Position numbers and translations under genes: made by a program. The notes under the pieces were generated by a model. It was not told the origin of the DNA. It saw nothing but the letters and a program-made list of their open reading frames with translations, and made no database searches. Shown piece by piece: positions 34 through 24,875 of a stretch of DNA of 39,854 bases (its first letter is position 1; each line of letters starts with the position of its first letter). The stretch is from Kayfunavirus LI10P1. The stretch is taken from the sequence record OZ035803.1. One strand, given 5' to 3'.

Positions 34-293
34 CGCAGATGGACTTAGAGAAGTTCCTCTTGATGCTTGATACTGAACGTGCTCGACTCATGCTGCAAGA
101 CTTGCGGGATGACACTAAGCGTTCACCTCAGCTCTACAACTCCATTGAGAAGCTGCTTGCTCGTCACAACTTTGTGTTAAGCAAGGTGTCTGTGGACGAG
201 AAGACGCTGGCTGATATGGAGGCCCTGAACGCAGAGTACGATAGGGTTCTTTCAGCGACTGAGGATAATGACACAGGGTATGGTGTTCAATAA
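30..293 (+). CDS. 18: DNA maturation protein A / small terminase subunit (T7 gp18-like)
   Basis: 87-aa ORF with RBS AAAGGAGG upstream; sequence (..FLLMLDTERARLMLQDL..RSPQLYNSIEKLLARH..) resembles T7 gp18 as recalled; sits immediately before the 18.5/19 block. Confidence 0.85.
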   Translation: MTQMDLEKFLLMLDTERARLMLQDLRDDTKRSPQLYNSIEKLLARHNFVLSKVSVDEKTLADMEALNAEYDRVLSATEDNDTGYGVQ

Positions 294-295
294 GT

Positions 296-345
296 GTTAG
301 ACTCAAGGTCATTACTATATGTAGTGGCCTTTATGGTTAACACTA
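296..345 (+). promoter_or_regulatory. Conserved RNA hairpin (RNase III-like processing site, R18.5-like)
   Basis: Stem AAGGTCA (305-311) pairs with TGGCCTT (325-331) including one G-U pair, with a 13-nt loop; same stem with different loops recurs at 9558-9584 and 16663-16687; resembles the T7 R1.1 motif GAGUGGCCUUUAUGAUU. Confidence 0.4.
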
Positions 346-394
346 ACTAGTGGAGGCAACTCTACGTGAAATCTGATAAACCGGGAGGGCAACT

Positions 395-3128: not shown

Positions 3129-3270
3129 ACCTTAGCTACTGTAGGTCAAGGACTTTAGGTAACACCTTAATAGAAGCTCACTTAGGGTCATCCTACTTAT
3201 TGGTCTATCCTAGTGTCGCCTGACCTACGGTCCTTGACCTACAGTAGCTGCCACCTACGGTCACTCGATG
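3129..3270. repeat. Short repeats (CCTAC[A/G]GT[C/A]) left of the predicted terminal repeat, i.e. right genome end
   Basis: Direct copies at 3224-3232 (cctacggtc), 3238-3246 (cctacagta), 3254-3262 (cctacggtc), plus an inverted copy in gctactgtaggtcaagg near 3140-3156. Confidence 0.5.
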
Positions 3271-3298
3271 AGTTTTGGACCAAAAGTTTGAGACCACA

Positions 3299-3478
3299 TC
3301 TCACAGTTCAAGAACCTCAAGTCTCCCCATAGGCCCTCTTTCAGTCCAGACAAAGGCCCTACCCCCAGTCTATCATAAGGCTGGACCGATGGTCAAGACG
3401 TTAGGTCAACGATAGGTCTAGGCTATGGCTGGAGGTCAGGACGATAGGTAGGGACTATGGGTCTGCCTCTGAGTCCCT
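3299..3478. repeat. Predicted direct terminal repeat (single copy in this circular assembly); physical left end at about 3299
   Basis: TCTCACAGTTCAAGAACCTCAAGTCTCCCCATAGGCCC at 3299 parallels the T7 left-end sequence TCTCACAGTGTACGGACCTAAAGTTCCCCCATAGGGGG; ..CTCTGAGTCCCT ending at 3478 parallels the end of the T7 repeat (..CTCTGTGTCCCT). Boundaries are by analogy only. Confidence 0.45.
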
Positions 3479-3515
3479 ATCTGTATAGTGATATAGTATA
3501 ACATTACGTCCTACA

Positions 3516-3611
3516 CCTACAGTCTAACTAACCTACAGTCATTGACTCCTGCTGTACCTACAGTCACCGACCATCGGTAAAGCCATTACCTACAGTCAAA
3601 GACCTACAGTC
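3516..3611. repeat. Array of five direct 9-mer repeats CCTACAGTC just inside the left end
   Basis: Exact copies at 3516, 3532, 3557, 3589 and 3603 with irregular 14-32 nt spacing; analogous in position to the ACCTAAAG-type repeats next to the T7 terminal repeat. Confidence 0.6.
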
Positions 3612-3723
3612 TAACGACACAAAGCTATAGACTTAAGGTCTAATACATGTTAGTCAAAGACTATATCCTCTTAGTCACTATGGGGCCGACGATAGCTTAA
3701 TCAATATTATTTAAGATTACCTA

Positions 3724-3752
3724 TTGACTACAGGTCCAGACTATGGCTTAAT
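3724..3752 (+). promoter_or_regulatory. Host sigma70-type early promoter (T7 A1-like)
   Basis: -35 TTGACT (3724-3729), 17-nt spacer, -10 CTTAAT (weak); flanking sequence ..ccggataagtagacagcctgataagtc.. closely parallels the T7 A1-A2 region. Confidence 0.45.
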
Positions 3753-3864
3753 AGCTTCCGTCAACACGACACGGCAACAACCGGATAGTGAAGACGCCGG
3801 GTCATCCCGGTTAAGTAGACAGCCTGATAAGTCATACGAACAACAGGCAGATGACAGAAAGTAG

Positions 3865-3894
3865 TTGACAAGATGTACCGACTTAAAGTAGTAT
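3865..3894 (+). promoter_or_regulatory. Host sigma70-type early promoter (T7 A2/A3-like)
   Basis: -35 TTGACA (3865-3870), 18-nt spacer, -10 TAGTAT (3889-3894), followed by gtaccacat..gctctttaacaatctgg, which parallels the sequence downstream of T7 A3. Confidence 0.55.
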
Positions 3895-4011
3895 GTACCA
3901 CATCAACACGAAACAACGGTGACGACCAACACTGAAACGGTCTACCTGAAGTCCTCTGACTGAAGGGAATGCTCTTTAACAATCTGGATAAACTCTTAAT
4001 GTGCGCCGATA

Positions 4012-4070
4012 GCGACTAACTACAGGGCCTTTGAGTCTACATCTGAAGGCCCTGACTGATAGTCACTAAC
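4012..4070 (+). promoter_or_regulatory. Early-region conserved hairpin element, copy 1 (probable RNA processing site)
   Basis: gcgactaactaCAGGGCCTTtgagtctacatctgAAGGCCCTGactgatagtcactaac: 9-bp stem with 14-nt loop, immediately upstream of the RBS of the first early ORF. Confidence 0.45.
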
Positions 4071-4086
4071 TTAAAGGATGGACACT

Positions 4087-4332
4087 ATGAAACACTTAAG
4101 CACAATCACTAACAGCAATGAAGTATTCGTGAACACTAAAGGCTATGCGTGGATTCAGCTTAAAGAGATGACAGGAGCGCGTCACCGTGTGGTAGTGCGC
4201 AAGGTATCAAGCAAGCCGTTCAGCAACTACAGCGTAGATACTGTGCGCATAGACAACGAGACATACCTGATAGATTCGCAGATAACCGTGAGTCCTACAG
4301 CGGGCGTCTCAGCTCCTTATTTCGCTAACTGA
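4087..4332 (+). CDS. Hypothetical early protein (first early gene, upstream of ocr)
   Basis: 81-aa ORF (track ORF 4078..4332; ATG 4087 preferred because AGGA is 9 nt upstream); lies between a host promoter plus hairpin and ocr; no recognisable motif. Confidence 0.6.
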   Translation: MKHLSTITNSNEVFVNTKGYAWIQLKEMTGARHRVVVRKVSSKPFSNYSVDTVRIDNETYLIDSQITVSPTAGVSAPYFAN

Positions 4333-4336
4333 GAGT

Positions 4337-4390
4337 GATTAACTACAGGTCGTTAGACTCATAGCGGCCTGACTGATAGGCACTAACACA
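4337..4390 (+). promoter_or_regulatory. Early-region conserved hairpin element, copy 2 (covarying stem)
   Basis: gattaactaCAGGTCGTTagactcatAGCGGCCTGactgataggcactaac: arms pair over 9 positions using two G-U wobbles; flanks (gattaactacagg / gactgatag-cactaac) are conserved with copies 1 and 3. Confidence 0.45.
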
Positions 4391-4415
4391 TACTTAACTT
4401 TGAGAGGATATAACT

Positions 4416-4922
4416 ATGGAACGTAACGCTAACGCATACTATGAGCTGCTGGCTGCAACCGTTGAGGCATTTATCGAGCGTATTCAGTACGACCACCTGA
4501 CTCAAGATGACGACTACAGCGATGCGCTGCATGAGGTCGTAGGCGGTCAGGTCCCGCACTATTACCACGAGATTTTCACGGTGATGGCTGCTGATGGTAT
4601 AGACCACGAGTTCGAAGACTCTGGGCTGATGCCTGAAACCAAGGACGTAACGCGTATCCTACAAGCTCGCATCTATGAGGCGCTTTATAACGATGTGTCT
4701 AATAGCTTGGATGTAGTCTGGTTTGAGGATGAAGAGGCAGACGAAGAGGATGAATATTGGGTAGTTGACGCTAAAACAGGCGCAATAATTGTGCAAGCTG
4801 TAGCTCTTGAGGTCGCTACTGCATGTGCCAAGGTTAACTATGCGGCAGGTCGCCACCTGAAGGTGGAAGACATCAATGATAACGTAGTGTTCGACCCTGC
4901 GGCTGAGGACTGCGAGCGATGA
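4416..4922 (+). CDS. ocr: Ocr-like DNA-mimic anti-restriction protein (T7 gp0.3 homolog) with a C-terminal extension
   Basis: Residues about 20-115 align with T7 Ocr as recalled ([43 protein letters not shown] versus T7 [43 protein letters not shown]); acidic stretch [10 protein letters not shown]; about 50 extra C-terminal residues; RBS GAGAGGA. Confidence 0.85.
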
Positions 4923-5089
4923 TAACTTACGGTTTATGCCAGCACCACGTCACCAACGCCCGACTTATGGTCAAGACCGGGCGATTAAACCACGAGGAGT
5001 CTATGCGTCTCTTGAAAGTGGTCTACAGGAGACGCAAGCGCATACACGACAGCTTACACTCTGAGGATAACCAACAATGTACCAGATAA
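4919..5089 (+). CDS. Hypothetical small basic protein (56 aa); weakly supported
   Basis: ATG overlaps the ocr stop (ATGA); [28 protein letters not shown]..; no strong RBS; not in the supplied track (below its length cut-off). Confidence 0.3.
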
Positions 5090-5160
5090 CTTATAGCAGT
5101 GAACAGGCATTCTACGATGGGTGCTACGAGCTGATGAAGCGCGATACTTGCTAGCGATAG

Positions 5161-5218
5161 TGATTAACTACAGGGTCTTTGAGTCTACATCTGAAGGCCC
5201 TGACTGATAGTCACTAAC
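5161..5218 (+). promoter_or_regulatory. Early-region conserved hairpin element, copy 3
   Basis: tgattaactaCAGGGTCTTtgagtctacatctgAAGGCCCTGactgatagtcactaac: near-identical to copy 1 with a C-to-T change that keeps pairing as G-U; directly upstream of the ORF at 5235. Confidence 0.45.
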
Positions 5219-5234
5219 AACTGAGAGGACAGAT

Positions 5235-5462
5235 ATGAACACAATCACTGGTGCCATAGCCAAAGGTTTTCGAGCAATTTTCAGTGAATCGCAAGAAGTA
5301 TGCACCAATCATAAATTCGTACTTTCTTGCGTAGTAGGGGACGAGTTTGACGGATTCGATAAACTGGTGGTTTGCGACCATTGTGGACAAGAGGCTATCC
5401 AACGCTCAAACGGTAAATTTGAATTAATAGACGATAGCCTTACAGAAGGAGACGGCGAGTAA
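5235..5462 (+). CDS. Hypothetical early protein (75 aa), Cys-containing
   Basis: RBS GAGAGGA 8 nt upstream; contains C..C and CDHC (possible metal-binding); no recognisable homolog from memory. Confidence 0.55.
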   Translation: MNTITGAIAKGFRAIFSESQEVCTNHKFVLSCVVGDEFDGFDKLVVCDHCGQEAIQRSNGKFELIDDSLTEGDGE

Positions 5463-5594
5463 CCTAGATAAACAGGAGAGAACCAAATCGTAGCTTGACC
5501 ATAACGCTGACAGGTGGATACTGAGTGATAGACGAGAGGTCATCGACTGATAGGTGGCCTCAAAGATTACCACTTACATTAATAGGAGTTAACT

Positions 5595-5684
5595 ATGAAT
5601 ATCGGTTACTGGGTGTGCTTATCTCCGGTCATCTTTCTGATAGGGTATGGGATATACGACTGTATTAAACGGAAATCACTATGA
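5595..5684 (+). CDS. Putative small hydrophobic peptide (29 aa)
   Basis: RBS TAGGAG 5584-5589; MNIGYWVCLSPVIFLIGYGIYDCIKRKSL (single predicted transmembrane segment); stop overlaps the next ATG (ATGA); below the track cut-off. Confidence 0.3.
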   Translation: MNIGYWVCLSPVIFLIGYGIYDCIKRKSL

Positions 5685-5878
5685 GTCTTGCACTATTGAT
5701 AGCCATAGGCTATGGACTTATCGCATACGTGCTGGTGAGAGACATCAACAAGGCACGTAAAGTCTATAAATTCAACTATGTACGTATGGTCCGCTGGACT
5801 GTACGTCAACCTAACGGACGATTCCTGCGCAATTTAGCGAACGTCTGGGATATAGCAACTCTTGGGAGCAAACTGTAA
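5681..5878 (+). CDS. Hypothetical early membrane protein (65 aa)
   Basis: N-terminal hydrophobic segment LALLIAIGYGLIAYVLV followed by a basic region; translationally coupled to its neighbours (overlapping stop/start). Confidence 0.5.
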   Translation: MSLALLIAIGYGLIAYVLVRDINKARKVYKFNYVRMVRWTVRQPNGRFLRNLANVWDIATLGSKL

Positions 5879-6204
5879 TGAACAAGTCATACGGGATTAA
5901 TCTGGTACACTCTATGGACGCAGAAATGAACATGTTAAGCCTACTGGCTACCGGGTATCGTCACGGAACGTCAAGTCACACCGCACGTCAACAGCAGGAG
6001 CGGGACCGTGTACTACAGGCGCGACTCCGGGCAGAGGGCCATAAGTCCGAACTGATGTGTCTGGCGTATGGTGGACGACCAATCACCGACGATGGTAAAC
6101 TTCTGGTATCAGGCTGGAAGGCGATAGACCAACGGTCAACCATCAAGCACACGACCAAAGGTGACTTCAGTCATCTTCACGCTAACCCACTGATATGCAA
6201 GTAA
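5878..6204 (+). CDS. Hypothetical early protein (108 aa), last gene before the RNAP gene
   Basis: ATG overlaps the previous stop (TAATG); no similarity to the T7 0.7 kinase as recalled; position corresponds to T7 genes 0.6-0.7. Confidence 0.55.
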   Translation: MNKSYGINLVHSMDAEMNMLSLLATGYRHGTSSHTARQQQERDRVLQARLRAEGHKSELMCLAYGGRPITDDGKLLVSGWKAIDQRSTIKHTTKGDFSHLHANPLICK

Positions 6205-6209
6205 TTATG

Positions 6210-6232
6210 ACTTAACTATCACTATAGGACTC
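6210..6232 (+). promoter_or_regulatory. Phage RNAP promoter immediately upstream of the RNAP gene
   Basis: acTTAACTATCACTATA-GGACTC, one mismatch to the family consensus (same variant as the promoters at 2699 and 29425); +1 G at 6227, 75 nt before ATG 6302. Confidence 0.65.
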
Positions 6233-6301
6233 AAGGTCTAAGACTCCAAGTGAAAGACCAAAGAGACTCTAAGTGAAAGACTAATAACAAGGACTTTAAG
6301 T

Positions 6302-8983
6302 ATGAGCGTCATCTCTATTGACAAACACGACTTCTCTGATGTGTCGAACGCCATTGAGCCGTTTAACCTGCTGGCTGACCACTACGGGCAAGACCTTGCA
6401 GTCAAACAGCTTCAGCTTGAGCATGAGGCATATACAGAAGGCGAGCGACGTTTCATCAAGAACCTTGAGCGGCAGACTGAGCGCGGGGAACTGGCAGACA
6501 ATCAGGTCGCCAAGCCTTTGATGCAGACTCTGGTCCCTAAGATTGCGCAAGCCGTCAGGGAGTGGCACGAAGGCCTAGACGGGAAGCTGTCAACCTCGCG
6601 TCCTAGCGTAGCGTTCACCATGTTGAGCACTGAAGAGAAGGCCGTAAAGGACCGCTCTATGCGCATCTCCTGTGAGTCCGCTGCGGTTATCATACTGAAG
6701 GTCATACTCTCCAAGCTGGTCAAGCCTGAAGGGATACCGATTACACCGATGGCCTCCGCGATAGGTCGCACACTTGAGGACGAAATCCGCTTCGGTCGCA
6801 TCCGTGACAAAGAGAAGGAGCACTTCAAGAAGGCGATAGCTGAGAACCTGAACAAGCGAGCTGGGGCATCCTACAAGAAAGCCTACATGCAAGCGGTCGA
6901 GGCGTCCATGCTGGAGCAAGGCCAACTGGAAGATGCATGGGGGACTTGGAGTCCTACAGAGGCTGTCCACGTTGGCATCAAGATGCTCGAGATTGTCATC
7001 CAGTCAACACAACTGGTCGAGCTTAAGCGGTACGGTGCTGGTAATGCAGCGGCTGACGTAGAGATGGTCCACCTGTCAGACTTCTGGGTCAAGAAGATGG
7101 CACAACGAGGATTCAGCCTTGCGGGTATCGCTCCAGTCTACCAGCCTTGCGTCGTTCCACCTAAGCCGTGGACTGGTGTCGTAGGTGGTGGGTACTGGGC
7201 CAAAGGTCGCAGACCGTTACCATTGATTCGCTTAGGGTCTAAGTCTGCGGTAGCACGTTATGAAGACGTATACATGCCTGAAGTCTATGACGCTGTGAAC
7301 ATCATTCAGAATACACCTTGGAAAGTTAACAAGAAGGTATTGGACGTGGTGAACATGGTCGAGAAGCTGAACAACACGCCTATTAATGACATCCCTCAGA
7401 TGGAACCGCTGAAGCCTGAGGACTATGCTGGTGAAACCGAGGAGGAACTCAAGGCATGGAAGAAGGCTGCTGCTGGTATCTATCGCCGCGAGAAGGCCAG
7501 ACAGTCACGCAGATTGTCCATGAGTTTCATCGTATCACAGGCCAACAAGTTCTCACAGTTTAAGGCCATCTGGTTCCCGTACAACATGGATTGGCGAGGT
7601 CGTGTCTACGCTGTCCCGATGTTCAACCCTCAGGGTAACGACATGCAGAAGGGTCTACTGACTCTGGCGGTCGGAAAGCCTATCGGGGCGGATGGTTTCA
7701 AATGGCTTAAAGTCCACACCGCCAACTGCGCGGGTGTCGATAAGGTAACCTTTGAGGAGCGTATCAAATGGGTGGAAGACAATCACGAGAACATTCTGGC
7801 AGCAGCCAAATCACCGATGGACAGCATCGAGTGGTGGGGGAGTATGGACAGCCCCTTCTGCTTCCTAGCGGCTTGCTTCGAGTATTCTGGGGTGATGAAC
7901 CATGGCTTGACCTACAATTGCTCACTTCCGATTGCCTTCGACGGCTCGTGTTCGGGGATTCAGCACTTCAGCGCGATGCTGAGGGACCACGTAGGCGGAC
8001 ATGCAGTGAACTTAACGCCGTCTGGTCAGGTGCAGGACATCTACCGTATAGTCTCAGACCGTGTGTCAGACCAGTTGAAAGAGCTATTACTGAGCGGTAC
8101 GGACGACGAGCTGGTGACCGTAGAGGACAAGAAGACTGGGGAAATCAGCGAACGCCTGAAGCTTGGGACCAAGAGTCTTGCGCGTCAGTGGCTGACATAC
8201 GGTATGTCACGCAAGGTCACTAAGCGTTCAGTCATGACTCTGGCATACGGGTCGAAAGAGTACGGATTCGCAGACCAAGTTTACGAGGACATCGTGATGC
8301 CAGCGATTGACTCAGGGTCTGGCGCTATGTTCACTGAACCAAGCCAAGCGTCTCGCTTCATGGCAAAGATGATTTGGGAAGCTGTGAGTGTGACAGTAGT
8401 TGCTGCGGTTGACGCGATGAAGTGGCTTCAAGGTGCTGCCAAGCTGCTGGCTGCTGAGGTGAAGGACAAGAAGACTGGAGAAATACTGAAGCCTTGCCTT
8501 CCGGTACACTGGGTCACACCTGATGGGTTCCCGGTCTGGCAGGAATACCGCAAGAAGGATACCACTCGTCTGAACCTGATGTTCTTAGGGTCCTTCAACC
8601 TTCAACCTACGGTCAACAAAGGTACGAAGAAAGAGCTGGACAAGCACAAGCAGGAGTCAGGCATTAGCCCTAACTTCGTCCACTCACAAGATGGTAGCCA
8701 CCTGCGGAAGACTGTAGTCCACACTCACCGCAAGTATGGCGTGATGTCATTCGCAGTGATTCACGATAGCTTCGGGACCATCCCTGCTGACGCTGAGTAT
8801 CTGTTCCGTGGTGTCCGTGAGACGATGGTCGAGACATACCGCGATAACGATGTGCTGCTTGACTTCTACGAGCAGTTTGAATACCAGCTTCATGAAAGCC
8901 AGCGCGACAAGTTGCCTGAGCTTCCGAAGAAAGGTAAACTGAATATCGAAGACATCTTGTCTTCAGACTTTGCATTCGCTTAA
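6302..8983 (+). CDS. 1: T7-type single-subunit DNA-dependent RNA polymerase
   Basis: 893-aa ORF collinear with T7 RNAP over its whole length (FNLLADHYG, RFGRIRDKEKEHFKK, PVYQPCVVPPKPWTG, WFPYNMDWRGRVYAV, LPIAFDGSCSGIQHFSAMLRD, TLAYGSKEYGF, HSQDGSHLRK, IHDSFGT, C-terminal FAFA). Confidence 0.97.
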   Translation: MSVISIDKHDFSDVSNAIEPFNLLADHYGQDLAVKQLQLEHEAYTEGERRFIKNLERQTERGELADNQVAKPLMQTLVPKIAQAVREWHEGLDGKLSTSRPSVAFTMLSTEEKAVKDRSMRISCESAAVIILKVILSKLVKPEGIPITPMASAIGRTLEDEIRFGRIRDKEKEHFKKAIAENLNKRAGASYKKAYMQAVEASMLEQGQLEDAWGTWSPTEAVHVGIKMLEIVIQSTQLVELKRYGAGNAAADVEMVHLSDFWVKKMAQRGFSLAGIAPVYQPCVVPPKPWTGVVGGGYWAKGRRPLPLIRLGSKSAVARYEDVYMPEVYDAVNIIQNTPWKVNKKVLDVVNMVEKLNNTPINDIPQMEPLKPEDYAGETEEELKAWKKAAAGIYRREKARQSRRLSMSFIVSQANKFSQFKAIWFPYNMDWRGRVYAVPMFNPQGNDMQKGLLTLAVGKPIGADGFKWLKVHTANCAGVDKVTFEERIKWVEDNHENILAAAKSPMDSIEWWGSMDSPFCFLAACFEYSGVMNHGLTYNCSLPIAFDGSCSGIQHFSAMLRDHVGGHAVNLTPSGQVQDIYRIVSDRVSDQLKELLLSGTDDELVTVEDKKTGEISERLKLGTKSLARQWLTYGMSRKVTKRSVMTLAYGSKEYGFADQVYEDIVMPAIDSGSGAMFTEPSQASRFMAKMIWEAVSVTVVAAVDAMKWLQGAAKLLAAEVKDKKTGEILKPCLPVHWVTPDGFPVWQEYRKKDTTRLNLMFLGSFNLQPTVNKGTKKELDKHKQESGISPNFVHSQDGSHLRKTVVHTHRKYGVMSFAVIHDSFGTIPADAEYLFRGVRETMVETYRDNDVLLDFYEQFEYQLHESQRDKLPELPKKGKLNIEDILSSDFAFA

Positions 8984-9529: not shown

Positions 9530-9552
9530 CCTAAACTATCACTATAGGATTA
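9530..9552 (+). promoter_or_regulatory. Phage RNAP promoter (phi1.1-like)
   Basis: cCTAAACTATCACTATA-GGATTA; consensus match; +1 G at 9547. Confidence 0.75.
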
Positions 9553-9597
9553 GACTCAAGGTCATGACTCAAAGTCGTGGCCTTCATGATTAACCCT
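9551..9597 (+). promoter_or_regulatory. Conserved RNA hairpin (RNase III-like, R1.1-like)
   Basis: AAGGTCA (9558-9564) pairs with TGGCCTT (9578-9584) with a 13-nt loop; downstream CATGATTAA resembles the T7 R1.1 motif. Confidence 0.4.
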
Positions 9598-9622
9598 AAC
9601 TCATTCAATCAGGAGCTACACC

Positions 9623-9805: not shown

Positions 9806-10066
9806 ATGAACCATTACGAGCTTAAAGATTTCGCAAAGAGTCTTGGACTTGTGGTTGAGCACGACTGGTATGAGGACCTCCAGCGTAGACTTAAGGTAGA
9901 GCGAGTGTCCTTCAGGACAGACTACAGGTACTCACCAAAGAACGGCTACGAGCGAGGGGACCTGATAGCGAGACTTGAGTTTAATGACTCAATGGGTCCA
10001 ACAGAATACGCCGATGCCATCGGTCCGGCTTACAACGCACTTAAACAATTTGAACTGTGGAGATAA
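9806..10066 (+). CDS. 1.2: gp1.2-like protein (in T7 an inhibitor of host dGTPase)
   Basis: 86-aa ORF; position and size match T7 gp1.2 (85 aa); shares a DWY-containing N-terminal region; function by analogy only. Confidence 0.55.
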   Translation: MNHYELKDFAKSLGLVVEHDWYEDLQRRLKVERVSFRTDYRYSPKNGYERGDLIARLEFNDSMGPTEYADAIGPAYNALKQFELWR

Positions 10067-11132: not shown

Positions 11133-11143
11133 CTAAATGTCAA

Positions 11144-11180
11144 CCCAGCAGTCCGAAGACCGCTGGGTTTCTTTGCTTTG
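11144..11180 (+). terminator. Intrinsic terminator after the ligase gene (T7 TE-like early terminator)
   Basis: cccagcaGTCcgaaGACcgctggg forms a GC-rich stem with a CGAA tetraloop, followed by tttctttgctttg (U-rich). Confidence 0.5.
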
Positions 11181-16451: not shown

Positions 16452-16652
16452 GTGCGACTGGAAGTCACCATACGGAGGACACCATTAGTGTTTAAGAAAC
16501 TTAAAGCTCGCTACCATCGGTTCATGTACAAATGGTGGAGTGATGAAGCAACCTGCCTGTCCAGCATTCTGGGAGACCAAAGGTTCGACTCTAAGGCATG
16601 GAAGAGAGCTAACCGGAAGTTTATGTATCACTTCTTGCGTACAGACTTCTAG
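16452..16652 (+). CDS. Hypothetical small basic protein between genes 4 and 5 (start uncertain; GTG 16487 after GGAGGA is an alternative)
   Basis: Track ORF of 66 aa; basic and Trp-rich (ARYHRFMYKWW); occupies the position of T7 genes 4.3-4.7 without recognised similarity. Confidence 0.4.
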   Translation: MRLEVTIRRTPLVFKKLKARYHRFMYKWWSDEATCLSSILGDQRFDSKAWKRANRKFMYHFLRTDF

Positions 16653-16654
16653 GT

Positions 16655-16700
16655 CTAGACTCAAGGTCATTCACATCGAGTGGCCTTTATGATTAGACTA
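16655..16700 (+). promoter_or_regulatory. Conserved RNA hairpin (RNase III-like) upstream of the DNA polymerase gene
   Basis: AAGGTCA (16663-16669) pairs with TGGCCTT (16681-16687) with an 11-nt loop, followed by TATGATTAGA; third copy of the family. Confidence 0.4.
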
Positions 16701-16715
16701 AACGGAGGATTAACC

Positions 16716-18887
16716 ATGTTTGACCTTAAGAGTATCTGGGGTTCTGACATAGAGACCAACGGTCTCCTTGATACAGTCTCCCAGTTTCACTGTGGGGTTC
16801 TGATTAACGCCGAGTCGAATGAGACCCTTAAGTATGGGGTAGCTCCGATGGTAGGTATCGTCGGTGGCTTCAAAGAGTATGTACAGAAGGTGGAAGAGAT
16901 TGCCGCATCACCTGATGGTATGCTGGTATTCCACAACGGTATCAACTATGACGTCCCGGCTATTGACAAGCTAAAGCGTCTGTACTTTGGGAAACGCTTT
17001 AACTTCCCGAAACACAAGATGATTGATACCTTGGTGCTGGGACGCTTGATGTATCCAAACATTAAGTTCTCAGACATGGGCGCAGTGAAAGCTGGTCGTC
17101 TGCCACCTAAGATGATGGGACGCCAGTCTCTTGAGGCTTGGGGCTATCGTCTCGGTGAGATGAAAGGTGAGTACAAACACGATTACGTTGCCAAGTGCAA
17201 GGCTGAAGGTATCGAATATAAGGCTGGGGACGAATGGTTGTTCCCATCTCAGGAGATGCTAGACTATAACGTTCAAGACGTTGTGGTCACACTGGCGTTG
17301 TTCAAGAAGTTCCTGACTGACAAGTATTACTTCCAGTCTGAACAGTTCGCTTTCGACCAGATTTATGCGTTGCGTCTGGAACATGATGCTGCGTGGACCT
17401 GTGCGAAGATGGAACGTAACGGCTATCCGATGAACACCGAGATGGTCGAAGGCTTATATCGTGAACTCACCGTCAAACGTGCAGAGTTGTTGGACAAGCT
17501 GCGTTCGACTTTCGGTAGCTGGTATGCACCAAAGGGAGGCAAGGAGTTCTTCAAGCACCCACGGACAGGCAAGGACCTTCCGAAGTATCCGCGAGTCGTG
17601 TATCCTAAGGTCGGGTCAGTATTCAAGAAGCCGAAGAACAAAGCTCAACGATTAGGTCTGGAGCCTTGCGAGTTCGACTCACGAGACACGATGGAAGGAG
17701 CACCGTTCACACCTATCACTTACGTTGAGTTTAATCCGGGAAGCGGAGACCACTTAGCGAAAGTCCTGATGGAGCGTGGCTGGGAGCCTGTAGACTTCAC
17801 TGACACCGGGAAACCTGTAGTCGATGACGAGACGTTAGAACACGTTAAGTTACCAGACGCAGAGGCTCAGGCTTGCGTAGAGCTGGTCCGTGAGTATCTG
17901 GTAGTCCAGAAGCGCATCGGTCAGGCGGCTGAAGGTAAGAACGCATGGTTGAAACTTGTAGGTCCAGACGGACGTATGCACGGTGCAATCAACCCATGTG
18001 GTGCAGTAACCGGACGTGCGACCCATAGTACACCAAACATGGCTCAGGTCCCGGCTAACGGTGCACCATACGGTGAGACTTGCCGTGGTGCTTTCGGTGC
18101 AGCTTGGAACAAGAAGGACGGTGAACCAGACCCTTGGATTCAAGTGGGCGTGGATGCCTCAGGTCTTGAGCTTCGTTGTCTGGGGAACCGAGCGGCCCCG
18201 TTTGATGGTGGAGCCTATGCGAAGACTGTGGTAGAAGGGGACATCCACTGGGCCAACGCAGTAAACGCTGGGTTAGCACCTAACGTCCCACGCGATAAGT
18301 CGAACCACGACCATGAGGCTTTCCGTAACAACGCTAAGACGTTCATCTATGCGTTCCTGTATGGTGCAGGGGCCGCTAAGATTGGACTGATAGTCGGTGG
18401 CGGTAAGAAGGAAGGTTCAGCTCTCATGAAGAAATTCATTGAGGGTACACCAGCTATCAAGGATCTGCGAGAGGCTGTGAGTAATACGTTAATCTCAGAC
18501 TCTAAGTGGGTGGATGGAGAGAACATCGTCAAGTGGAAACGCCGTTGGTTGCGTGGACTTGATGGTCGCCGTATCCACATCCGGTCGCCGCACTCAGCAC
18601 TTAACGCCTTACTTCAGGGTGATGGTGCGGTGGTCTGTAAAACGTGGTTCACTTGGCTTGAGAGGAACCTAGAAGCTAAAGGCTACGTGCATGGCTGGGA
18701 TGGTGACTTTGCGATTATGGCTTTTGTCCATGATGAAGTTCAAGTTGCCGCAAGGACTATGGAAATAGCTGAGGACATCGTTAAGGTGGCGCAATCCACA
18801 ATGCGAGAGGTTGGAGAGTTCTACAAGTTCAAGTGTGTACTTGACACCGAGGGAAAGATAGGGGATACGTGGCGAGAATGTCACTAA
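16716..18887 (+). CDS. 5: DNA polymerase (family A, T7 gp5-like)
   Basis: ATG 16716 with GGAGGA 7 nt upstream (the track ORF begins at GTG 16680); exonuclease motif DIETNGL, LEAWGYRLGEMKGEY, DYNVQDVVVT, SWYAPKGG, PKYPRVVYPKVG, RATHSTPNMAQVP, DASGLELRC, NAKTFIYAFLYGAG, HDEVQV collinear with T7 DNA polymerase. Confidence 0.97.
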   Translation: MFDLKSIWGSDIETNGLLDTVSQFHCGVLINAESNETLKYGVAPMVGIVGGFKEYVQKVEEIAASPDGMLVFHNGINYDVPAIDKLKRLYFGKRFNFPKHKMIDTLVLGRLMYPNIKFSDMGAVKAGRLPPKMMGRQSLEAWGYRLGEMKGEYKHDYVAKCKAEGIEYKAGDEWLFPSQEMLDYNVQDVVVTLALFKKFLTDKYYFQSEQFAFDQIYALRLEHDAAWTCAKMERNGYPMNTEMVEGLYRELTVKRAELLDKLRSTFGSWYAPKGGKEFFKHPRTGKDLPKYPRVVYPKVGSVFKKPKNKAQRLGLEPCEFDSRDTMEGAPFTPITYVEFNPGSGDHLAKVLMERGWEPVDFTDTGKPVVDDETLEHVKLPDAEAQACVELVREYLVVQKRIGQAAEGKNAWLKLVGPDGRMHGAINPCGAVTGRATHSTPNMAQVPANGAPYGETCRGAFGAAWNKKDGEPDPWIQVGVDASGLELRCLGNRAAPFDGGAYAKTVVEGDIHWANAVNAGLAPNVPRDKSNHDHEAFRNNAKTFIYAFLYGAGAAKIGLIVGGGKKEGSALMKKFIEGTPAIKDLREAVSNTLISDSKWVDGENIVKWKRRWLRGLDGRRIHIRSPHSALNALLQGDGAVVCKTWFTWLERNLEAKGYVHGWDGDFAIMAFVHDEVQVAARTMEIAEDIVKVAQSTMREVGEFYKFKCVLDTEGKIGDTWRECH

Positions 18888-24749: not shown

Positions 24750-24772
24750 GACTAAACTATCACTATAGGGAG
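24750..24772 (+). promoter_or_regulatory. Phage RNAP promoter (phi10-like; best consensus match, upstream of the capsid gene)
   Basis: aCTAAACTATCACTATA-GGGAGA; +1 G at 24767; the GGGAGA initiation region is identical to the T7 class III consensus. Confidence 0.85.
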
Positions 24773-24875
24773 ACCAAGAGACAGACTCAAGGTTTCCCTA
24801 TTACTTCAGTCCATACGGATTGGGCATACAGTAAGTAATAAACTTTATCTTTCAATTGAATAGGAGAATTATCAT

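Follow-up and report, generated by a model that had tools for sequence, protein, structure and literature searches.

Processing of the early RNA by host RNase III is a textbook feature of phage T7, in which five sites lie within the early unit and the enzyme is stimulated by the T7 gp0.7 kinase. Internal loops or mismatches in such sites mean that only one strand engages the catalytic site, and the 3' hairpins that result from single-strand cleavage are stability determinants (PMC3867540). Site R0.3 is recognised in T3 as well (PMC3276506). As DNA, the palindromes of T7 RNase III sites are reported to trigger the Lamassu/DdmABC defence, and a plasmid-borne T7 RNase III site, like comparable hairpins from one T7-related vibriophage, leads to DdmABC-dependent death (PMC11707656).

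The stretch analysed here (39,854 nucleotides, referred to as the window) is the circularly permuted ~39.9 kb genome of a T7 relative of the K1F type, a Kayfunavirus of E. coli (Autographiviridae, Studiervirinae). Over its early region (3700-6300) it shares 96-98% identity with Escherichia Kayfunavirus genomes, and the close relatives have E. coli as their host. Landmarks include the ORFs for the large terminase (841-2604) and for the 893-aa RNA polymerase (gene 1, 6302-8983), and an Rz-like spanin gene assigned with PHROGs (395-844). A phage promoter family (CTAAACTATCACTATAGG), detected by a repeat finder, is dispersed over the + strand. Like T7 R1, R0.3 and R0.5, the early hairpin elements described below occupy intercistronic positions in an early unit predicted to be transcribed by the host polymerase.

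Three repeats in the early region and their fold

A first-pass annotation, made from the letters of the sequence, described three copies of a hairpin element upstream of early genes. All three are present at the places given, spanning 4007-4073, 4330-4390 and 5155-5221, and the stems quoted for them are exact: CAGGGCCTT/AAGGCCCTG in copy 1, CAGGTCGTT/AGCGGCCTG in copy 2 and CAGGGTCTT/AAGGCCCTG in copy 3. The conserved flanks TAACTACAGG and CCTGACTGATAG each have three mismatch-free occurrences in the window, at these loci only and on the + strand only. The repeat finder placed copies 1 and 3 in one group (D7; 64 nt, 95% identity) and all three copies in another (D9). This repetition is far beyond chance.

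The folding check proposed with that description gave + strand energies of −25.6, −18.6 and −24.5 kcal/mol for copies 1, 2 and 3, with z-scores of −4.9, −3.1 and −3.8 against dinucleotide shuffles. The minimum-free-energy folds contain the stem of the ~55-nt hairpin first proposed, but the structure is larger, since the segments 'gattaacta' and 'gatagtcactaac', then taken as flanks, pair with each other. The result is a two-tier hairpin with a lower stem of 8-9 bp (for example, UAGUGAUUA pairs with UAGUCACUA), an asymmetric internal loop whose 5' side has 4 nt (ACUA in copies 1-3) and whose 3' side has 5 nt (ACUGA in copies 1-3), and an upper stem of 10-12 bp. T7 R0.3, R0.5 and R1 share this two-tier form with its asymmetric internal loop.

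Site 1 (copy 1, 4007..4073) lies in the leader of the ORF at 4087-4332. Its lower stem is 4011-4018/4060-4067, its internal loop comprises 4019-4022 and 4055-4059, and its upper stem, 4023-4032/4045-4054, carries an apical extension. Site 2 (copy 2, 4330..4390) begins at the stop codon of that ORF and lies between it and ocr, with a lower stem at 4334-4341/4377-4384 and an upper stem at 4346-4355/4362-4371 that includes two U-G pairs. In site 3 (copy 3, 5155..5221), which precedes the ORF at 5235-5462, the lower stem is 5159-5166/5208-5215 and the upper stem, with one U-G pair, is 5171-5180/5193-5202.

Pairing is maintained between the copies, as first noted, but not by G-U wobbles alone: relative to copy 1, copy 2 has two-sided changes (G-C to U-G, C-G to G-C) alongside one-sided ones. 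For copies 2 and 3, folding of the minus strand gave no gain over shuffles (z −0.3 and −0.7), since their U-G pairs turn into A-C mismatches there. Thus, the folding is strand-specific and the structure is one of the + strand RNA.

T7-type sites in the window and its relatives

A covariance model was trained on seven T7 sites only (R0.3, R0.5, R1, R1.1, R1.3, R4.7 and R18.5). The T7 cleavage coordinates used, which we take to be those of Dunn and Studier (1983), place the cut 3 nt past the upper stem in 7/7 training sites; RNase III features are absent from the feature tables of the T7 records NC_001604 and V01146. R6.5 and R13, presumed to be cut at 18852 and 27281, were left out of the training set as no clean hairpin was seen there, and R3.8 because it misaligned. 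Searching T7 with the model returned the seven training sites and 18499-18579, a hairpin outside the training set that spans the T7 phi6.5 promoter and is probably R6.5, with nothing else above 16 bits.

Applied to the window with filters off, the T7-only model found seven places at 28.9-53 bits, the next best match scoring 15.2 bits. Copies 2, 1 and 3 scored 39.5 bits (E 1.7e-7), 29.6 bits (E 7e-5) and 28.9 bits (E 1.1e-4), copies 1 and 3 being the lowest-scoring pair, with E values of ~1e-4 from a rough calibration. A second, broader model, built from relatives, found the same seven places and gave site 1 38.1 bits. Rfam 15 had no match at gathering score anywhere in the window. All seven sites are intergenic and on the + strand.

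The family of three early copies first described is therefore incomplete, with a fourth early element and three more elsewhere in the window. Site 4 (5520..5580; GAGUGAUAGAC...GGUGGCCUCAAAGAUUACCACU) is of the T7 R0.5 type and scored 34.4 bits with the T7-only model (E 3.9e-6; fold z −2.95). Site 5 (9542..9603), the R1.1 equivalent, scored 42.6 bits with the T7-only model and 65.7 bits with the broader one (fold z −4.2), and overlaps the transcript start from the phage promoter at 9531-9553. In the middle-gene region, a site resembling T7 R4.7 (16647..16706; 47.1 bits, E 1.6e-9; fold z −3.5) lies directly upstream of the DNA polymerase start (ATG 16717). The R18.5 equivalent (289..350; 53 bits, E 4e-11; fold z −4.2) lies upstream of the Rz-like spanin gene. 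These last three sites, which start at 9542, 16647 and 289, have nearly the same consensus as T7 R1.1, R4.7 and R18.5 and their T3-like equivalents (GACUCAAGGUC...GUGGCCUUUAUGAUUA). Their positions are also nearly the same: the first follows the gene 1 region, the second precedes the DNA polymerase gene and the third precedes the spanin gene. They represent a canonical subtype, whereas copies 1-3 form a CAGG/CCUG subtype; a C-G pair closes the upper stem of T7 R1, as it does in copies 1-3.

Several other candidates were rejected. A hairpin that follows the promoter at 6211-6230, before gene 1, was considered as an R1 equivalent; it gave z −1.0 against shuffles and was matched by neither model, and because of both failures no R1 equivalent is claimed. 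A weak CAGG...CCUG hairpin found by regular expression at 9908-9980, in or adjoining the ligase start, had no support from either covariance model, and a match of the same pattern at the T7 phi17 promoter, also without covariance model support, was a false positive. Weak model matches at 5662-5698 (− strand, E 0.03-0.5) and 24761-24807 (E 4.9) were treated as chance.

The window copies align with T7 R1, R0.3 and R0.5 column for column, including the 3' internal-loop segment that bears the cut. R1 reads CUUACAGGUC...GGCCUGAAU^AGG (5' side cttaCAGGTCATC, 3' side GGTGGCCTGaat^agg) and R0.3 reads AUAACUCAAGGG...GCCCUUUAU^GAUAUUCACUAA (5' side ataactcAAGGGTATC, 3' side GGTGCCCTTtat^gatattcactaa). 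The window counterpart, with the predicted cut marked, is UUAACUACAGGG...GCCCUGACU^GAUAGUCACUAA, and for copy 3 the two sides are ttaactaCAGGGTCTT and AAGGCCCTGact^gatagtcactaa, again with a predicted cut. With the cut placed by this alignment, copies 1-3 would have ACU^GAU as the scissile segment and site 4 would have AAA^GAU, against UAU^GAU or AAU^AGG in T7. GAU after the predicted cut is thus common to T7 and window sites, whilst the residues before it differ, the 3' loop being ACUGA in the window copies and UAUGA or AAUAG in T7. In copies 1 and 3 the apical extension is also bulged, and it is longer than in any of the T7 sites.

A search across related phages with a covariance model, suggested in the first-pass annotation, was made with the T7-only model on 80 viral contigs, in the locus surrounding the RNA polymerase gene of each (protein identity 57-96%). 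It gave 215 matches in the 80 loci, all of them (215/215) on the transcribed strand. Among the 150 best matches, in an alignment that is model-fitted and so leans towards structure, 93.8% of pair cells held standard pairs, compared with 26-47% when the partners were slid by 1-3 columns; two-sided changes numbered 267 cells, against 80 in shuffles, and compensatory change was seen in 12 of 17 pairs. Because this alignment was fitted to the model, the count was repeated on a plain MAFFT alignment of the four early window sites with T7 R1, R0.3 and R0.5. Here 94.4% of cells were paired (slid controls, 30-46%), with two-sided compensatory changes in 9 of 18 pairs. Conservation of the copies inside the genus is 95-98%, and the CAGG subtype has only four or five stem variants there; the covariation therefore derives mainly from comparison between paralogues and with distant genera.

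Matches to the 67-nt element were found in 194 phage records, with identity of at least 95% in 158, and come from phages of Escherichia, Salmonella, Enterobacter, Citrobacter and Klebsiella. Among the matches listed, almost no record has an annotated feature beneath the element. In K1F itself, sites lie at record positions 705, 1028, 1764 and 5564, and the K1F reference record holds CDS features only over the early region examined.

Predicted processing of the early transcript

Two candidate host sigma-70 promoters precede site 1 on the + strand. The top match of a promoter scan (10/12) is at 3865..3902, with TTGACA, 18 nt and TAGTAT, followed by gtaccacA; compared with T7 A1-A3, it closely resembles A3, and its start is predicted at ~3902. 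The second, at 3724..3752 (TTGACT, 17 nt, CTTAAT/TTAATA), was proposed from reading the sequence and scores under the threshold of the scan. Downstream, a terminator-like hairpin with a U-tract lies 3' of the ligase gene at 11141..11180 (+ strand; CCCAGC...GCUGGGUUUCUUUGCUUU). Reading of the sequence suggests that the early unit likely ends here, the hairpin being the counterpart of T7 TE; a simple terminator scan did not call the 11141-11180 hairpin. Because the upstream promoters and the TE-like terminator bound it, the early unit would span ~7.3 kb and contain five model matches (starting at 4007, 4330, 5155, 5520 and 9542), the same number as in T7.

The genes that follow the sites are not those of T7. 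Downstream of site 1 is an 81-aa protein of unknown function (ORF81, phrog_10124; 4087-4332), and downstream of site 2 is the anti-restriction protein Ocr (phrog_2568; 4416-4922) together with two small ORFs. Site 3 is followed by a 75-aa protein (ORF75, phrog_32657; 5235-5462), and site 4 by small ORFs (5595-5684, 5681-5878 and 5878-6204) and then gene 1. Unlike in T7, neither gene 1 nor the ligase gene has a site immediately in front of it, and there is an extra site before a gene upstream of ocr. A further difference from T7 is that PHROGs comparison of the early-region ORFs detected no homologue of a gp0.7-like protein kinase.

GC-rich hairpins in intergenic positions could in principle act as transcription terminators or attenuators within the early unit. 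However, no copy is followed by a U-tract, the stem running instead into ACUGAUAGUCACUAAC, and the terminator scan made no call at the copies. The host polymerase must moreover transcribe through the sites to reach the downstream genes, that for the RNA polymerase included. With the U-tract lacking from every copy, termination can be excluded for practical purposes, its probability being close to nil.

The reading that fits these observations is RNase III processing, as at T7 R0.3, R0.5 and R1, which the first-pass annotation had put forward as the most likely function. The T7-only model, the alignment and the promoter and terminator context support it, the support being one of homology. We consider it highly probable that copies 1-3, together with the elements at 5520-5580 and 9542-9603, are T7-type RNase III processing signals of the Kayfunavirus early unit. 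It is homology with T7 that points to the enzyme and to where exactly it would cut.

The events envisaged are as follows. Host RNA polymerase would start at ~3724 and ~3865 and run rightward to the TE-like terminator at ~11175. In the nascent RNA, each element would form an imperfect double helix of about two helical turns, as the folding and covariation indicate. Host RNase III would then bind and make a single cut in the 3' strand of the internal loop, since such a loop allows no more than one strand into a catalytic site. Column-for-column alignment with the T7 sites predicts cuts at ACU^GAU in copies 1-3, at 4057^4058, 4374^4375 and 5205^5206, respectively (+ strand). By homology, site 4 would be cut at AAA^GAU (5564^5565) and site 5 at CAU^GAU (9587^9588). 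Because the 3' loop is ACUGA rather than the UAUGA or AAUAG of T7, the predicted positions could be off by a nucleotide or two.

After cleavage, the upstream message would keep a protective 3' hairpin, and the downstream message would begin with a short unstructured leader (GAUAGUCACUAAC...) of 20-40 nt before the Shine-Dalgarno sequence. The ~7.3-kb precursor would in this way be converted into a leader of 156 nt and five mRNAs, which would carry ORF81, ocr with the two small ORFs, ORF75, the RNA polymerase block and the ligase block, respectively.

The same hairpins might instead serve mainly as cis-acting stability or translation elements without any RNase III cleavage, either as 3' barriers that shield read-through transcripts from exonucleases or as modulators of ribosome access; the first-pass annotation, too, had allowed for translational control. 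They are stable, ribosome-binding sites follow immediately downstream with the Shine-Dalgarno sequence 5-17 nt away, and processing in T7 affects the translation of several mRNAs (PMC4858673). Yet those effects on stability and translation in T7 follow from cleavage and are not alternatives to it, and the Shine-Dalgarno sequences lie outside the predicted helices. The copies match a model made from cleaved T7 sites only, and their conserved single-stranded 3' loop would have no role in a pure barrier hairpin. We therefore regard a function without cleavage as improbable, and RNase III processing as the preferred explanation.

Early-gene cassettes and the place of the sites in the genus

The early region of the window was compared pairwise with 23 related early regions. 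In six relatives (L028, L023, L036, L031, L018 and L025), one site stands in place of the whole of site 1, ORF81 and site 2. Site 3 and ORF75 form an inserted cassette (5154-5490) that is missing from K1F and many relatives; among 98 sequences compared, ORF75 was present only in the window and in MZ234022. Homology breakpoints fell in or ≤20 nt from the sites in 36% of cases, compared with 18% expected, in loci that are related, such that the counts are not independent; other breakpoint hotspots were at 4740-4905, 5069 and 5880. In two distant phages (L059 and L075), a homologue of ORF81 is directly followed by a site.

Repeated intergenic early stem-loops that adjoin variable accessory ORFs are also known from T4. 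There, the PeSL (promoter-early stem-loop) repeats contain an early promoter, form cassette boundaries and have a proposed role in recombination. The window hairpins differ from PeSL in that no promoter accompanies them and the conserved feature is the RNA signal. In the sigma-70 scan no match overlapped the copies, and the sole weak match nearby, at 4079-4106 (9/12), was within chance expectation.

Such patterns raise the question of whether the repeats are primarily DNA-level recombination joints for accessory-gene cassettes, in which RNA structure is incidental. This would account for indels between relatives that are bounded by sites, for the breakpoint excess in or near the sites and for the site that directly follows the ORF81 homologue in the distant phages. 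On the other hand, every match among the relatives was on the transcribed strand; the U-G pairs make the structure strand-specific, and the compensatory changes keep pairing rather than sequence. The site 3 cassette has a right-hand boundary (5490) that falls outside any site, and the weight of the breakpoint excess is reduced by the dependence between counts and by the other hotspots. A primarily DNA-level role is thus very improbable, more so than the stability or translation role without cleavage considered above, and recombination between the repeats would more plausibly be a side effect of having repeated RNA signals.

With RNase III processing as the primary role, a secondary one can be entertained tentatively: the hairpins, repeated and almost identical, may also be portable cassette boundaries, homologous recombination between copies driving the turnover of early anti-defence and host-takeover genes. 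We rate this as rather unlikely. Such recombination may occur within and between co-infecting Kayfunavirus-like phages. The palindromes, which are of the same kind as those that trigger Lamassu/DdmABC, a liability at the DNA level known from Vibrio cholerae, may perhaps also be exposed to Lamassu. The cassette-edge and Lamassu observations are leads, not findings.

On their sequence and predicted structure, the elements belong to the T7 family of RNase III signals, a family known for a long time, and had gone unannotated. The chief value of recognising them is in annotation, since the element occurs in 194 deposited phage genomes. Marked sites would define the mature early mRNAs, that of Ocr included, and would offer phage engineering well-defined boundaries. 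A modest lead is the coincidence between the sites and the ends of variable early-gene cassettes. For the K1F-like genus, the elements indicate that the T7 strategy of having the host RNase III process early RNA has probably been conserved.

RNase III-type hairpins

A fourth early hairpin of the RNase III type was found at 5520-5580, additional to the three copies described in the first-pass annotation (sites 1-3), and is very close to T7 R0.5 (GAGTGATAGAC...GGTGGCCTCAAAGATTACCACTT). Three canonical T7-type RNase III hairpins (consensus GACTCAAGGTC...GTGGCCTTTATGATTA) are also present: at 289-350 before the spanin gene, at 9542-9603 downstream of gene 1 (the RNA polymerase gene) and of a phage promoter that follows this gene, and at 16647-16706 before the DNA polymerase gene. 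These are the equivalents of T7 R18.5, R1.1 and R4.7, respectively.

In T7, RNase III site R1 lies upstream of gene 1, whereas here a phage promoter (6211-6230) is found directly upstream of this gene instead. No RNase III-type hairpin was detected at 6205-6300, ahead of gene 1, by folding or by either covariance model (one built from the seven T7 sites only, the other from relatives); the local fold was not better than shuffled sequences (z = -1.0), and neither model gave a match. The CAGG...CCTG hairpin at 9908-9980, just ahead of the ligase start, occupies the position corresponding to T7 R1.3. It is a weak hairpin with a 24-nt loop, is matched by neither of the two models and was rejected as an RNase III site.

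Promoters, likely terminator and probable genome end

The family of phage RNA polymerase promoters has about eleven members with the core CTAAACTATCACTATAGG, all on the + strand, at 2700, 6211, 9531, 11217, 12297, 14664, 20925, 23764, 24752, 29426 and 36702. After the ligase ORF, a hairpin (CCCAGC...GCTGGG) followed by TTTCTTTGCTTT at 11141-11180 was not called by a simple terminator scan; judged by its sequence, it is likely to be the early terminator, equivalent to T7 TE. Short direct repeats (ACCTACAGT / GACCTACAGT) occur in the non-coding stretch 3223-3610, with the terminase end on one side and the early promoters on the other, and this stretch probably marks where the genome end or terminal repeat has come to lie in a permuted assembly.

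Early ORFs and cassettes

No ORF in 3900-6300 was found to resemble the protein kinase gp0.7, by which RNase III is stimulated in T7. The largest early ORFs encode Ocr, with 168 aa, and a 108-aa product whose function is unknown.

Early-gene cassettes appear to have been gained or lost at the hairpins (4074-4330 and 5154-5490 in the window; related loci L018-L036 and L097). In several relatives, ORF81 (the 81-aa ORF between sites 1 and 2) and its flanking sites are replaced by a single site. Site 3 together with ORF75 (5154-5490) is an insertion shared only with MZ234022. The enrichment of breakpoints at the sites is approximately two-fold, from counts that are non-independent.

ORF75 (5235-5462; 75 aa) belongs to phrog_32657, of unknown function, and among the 98 sequences compared it occurs in just one other, MZ234022. 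Its C..C...CDHC pattern suggests that the product is a small zinc-binding protein.
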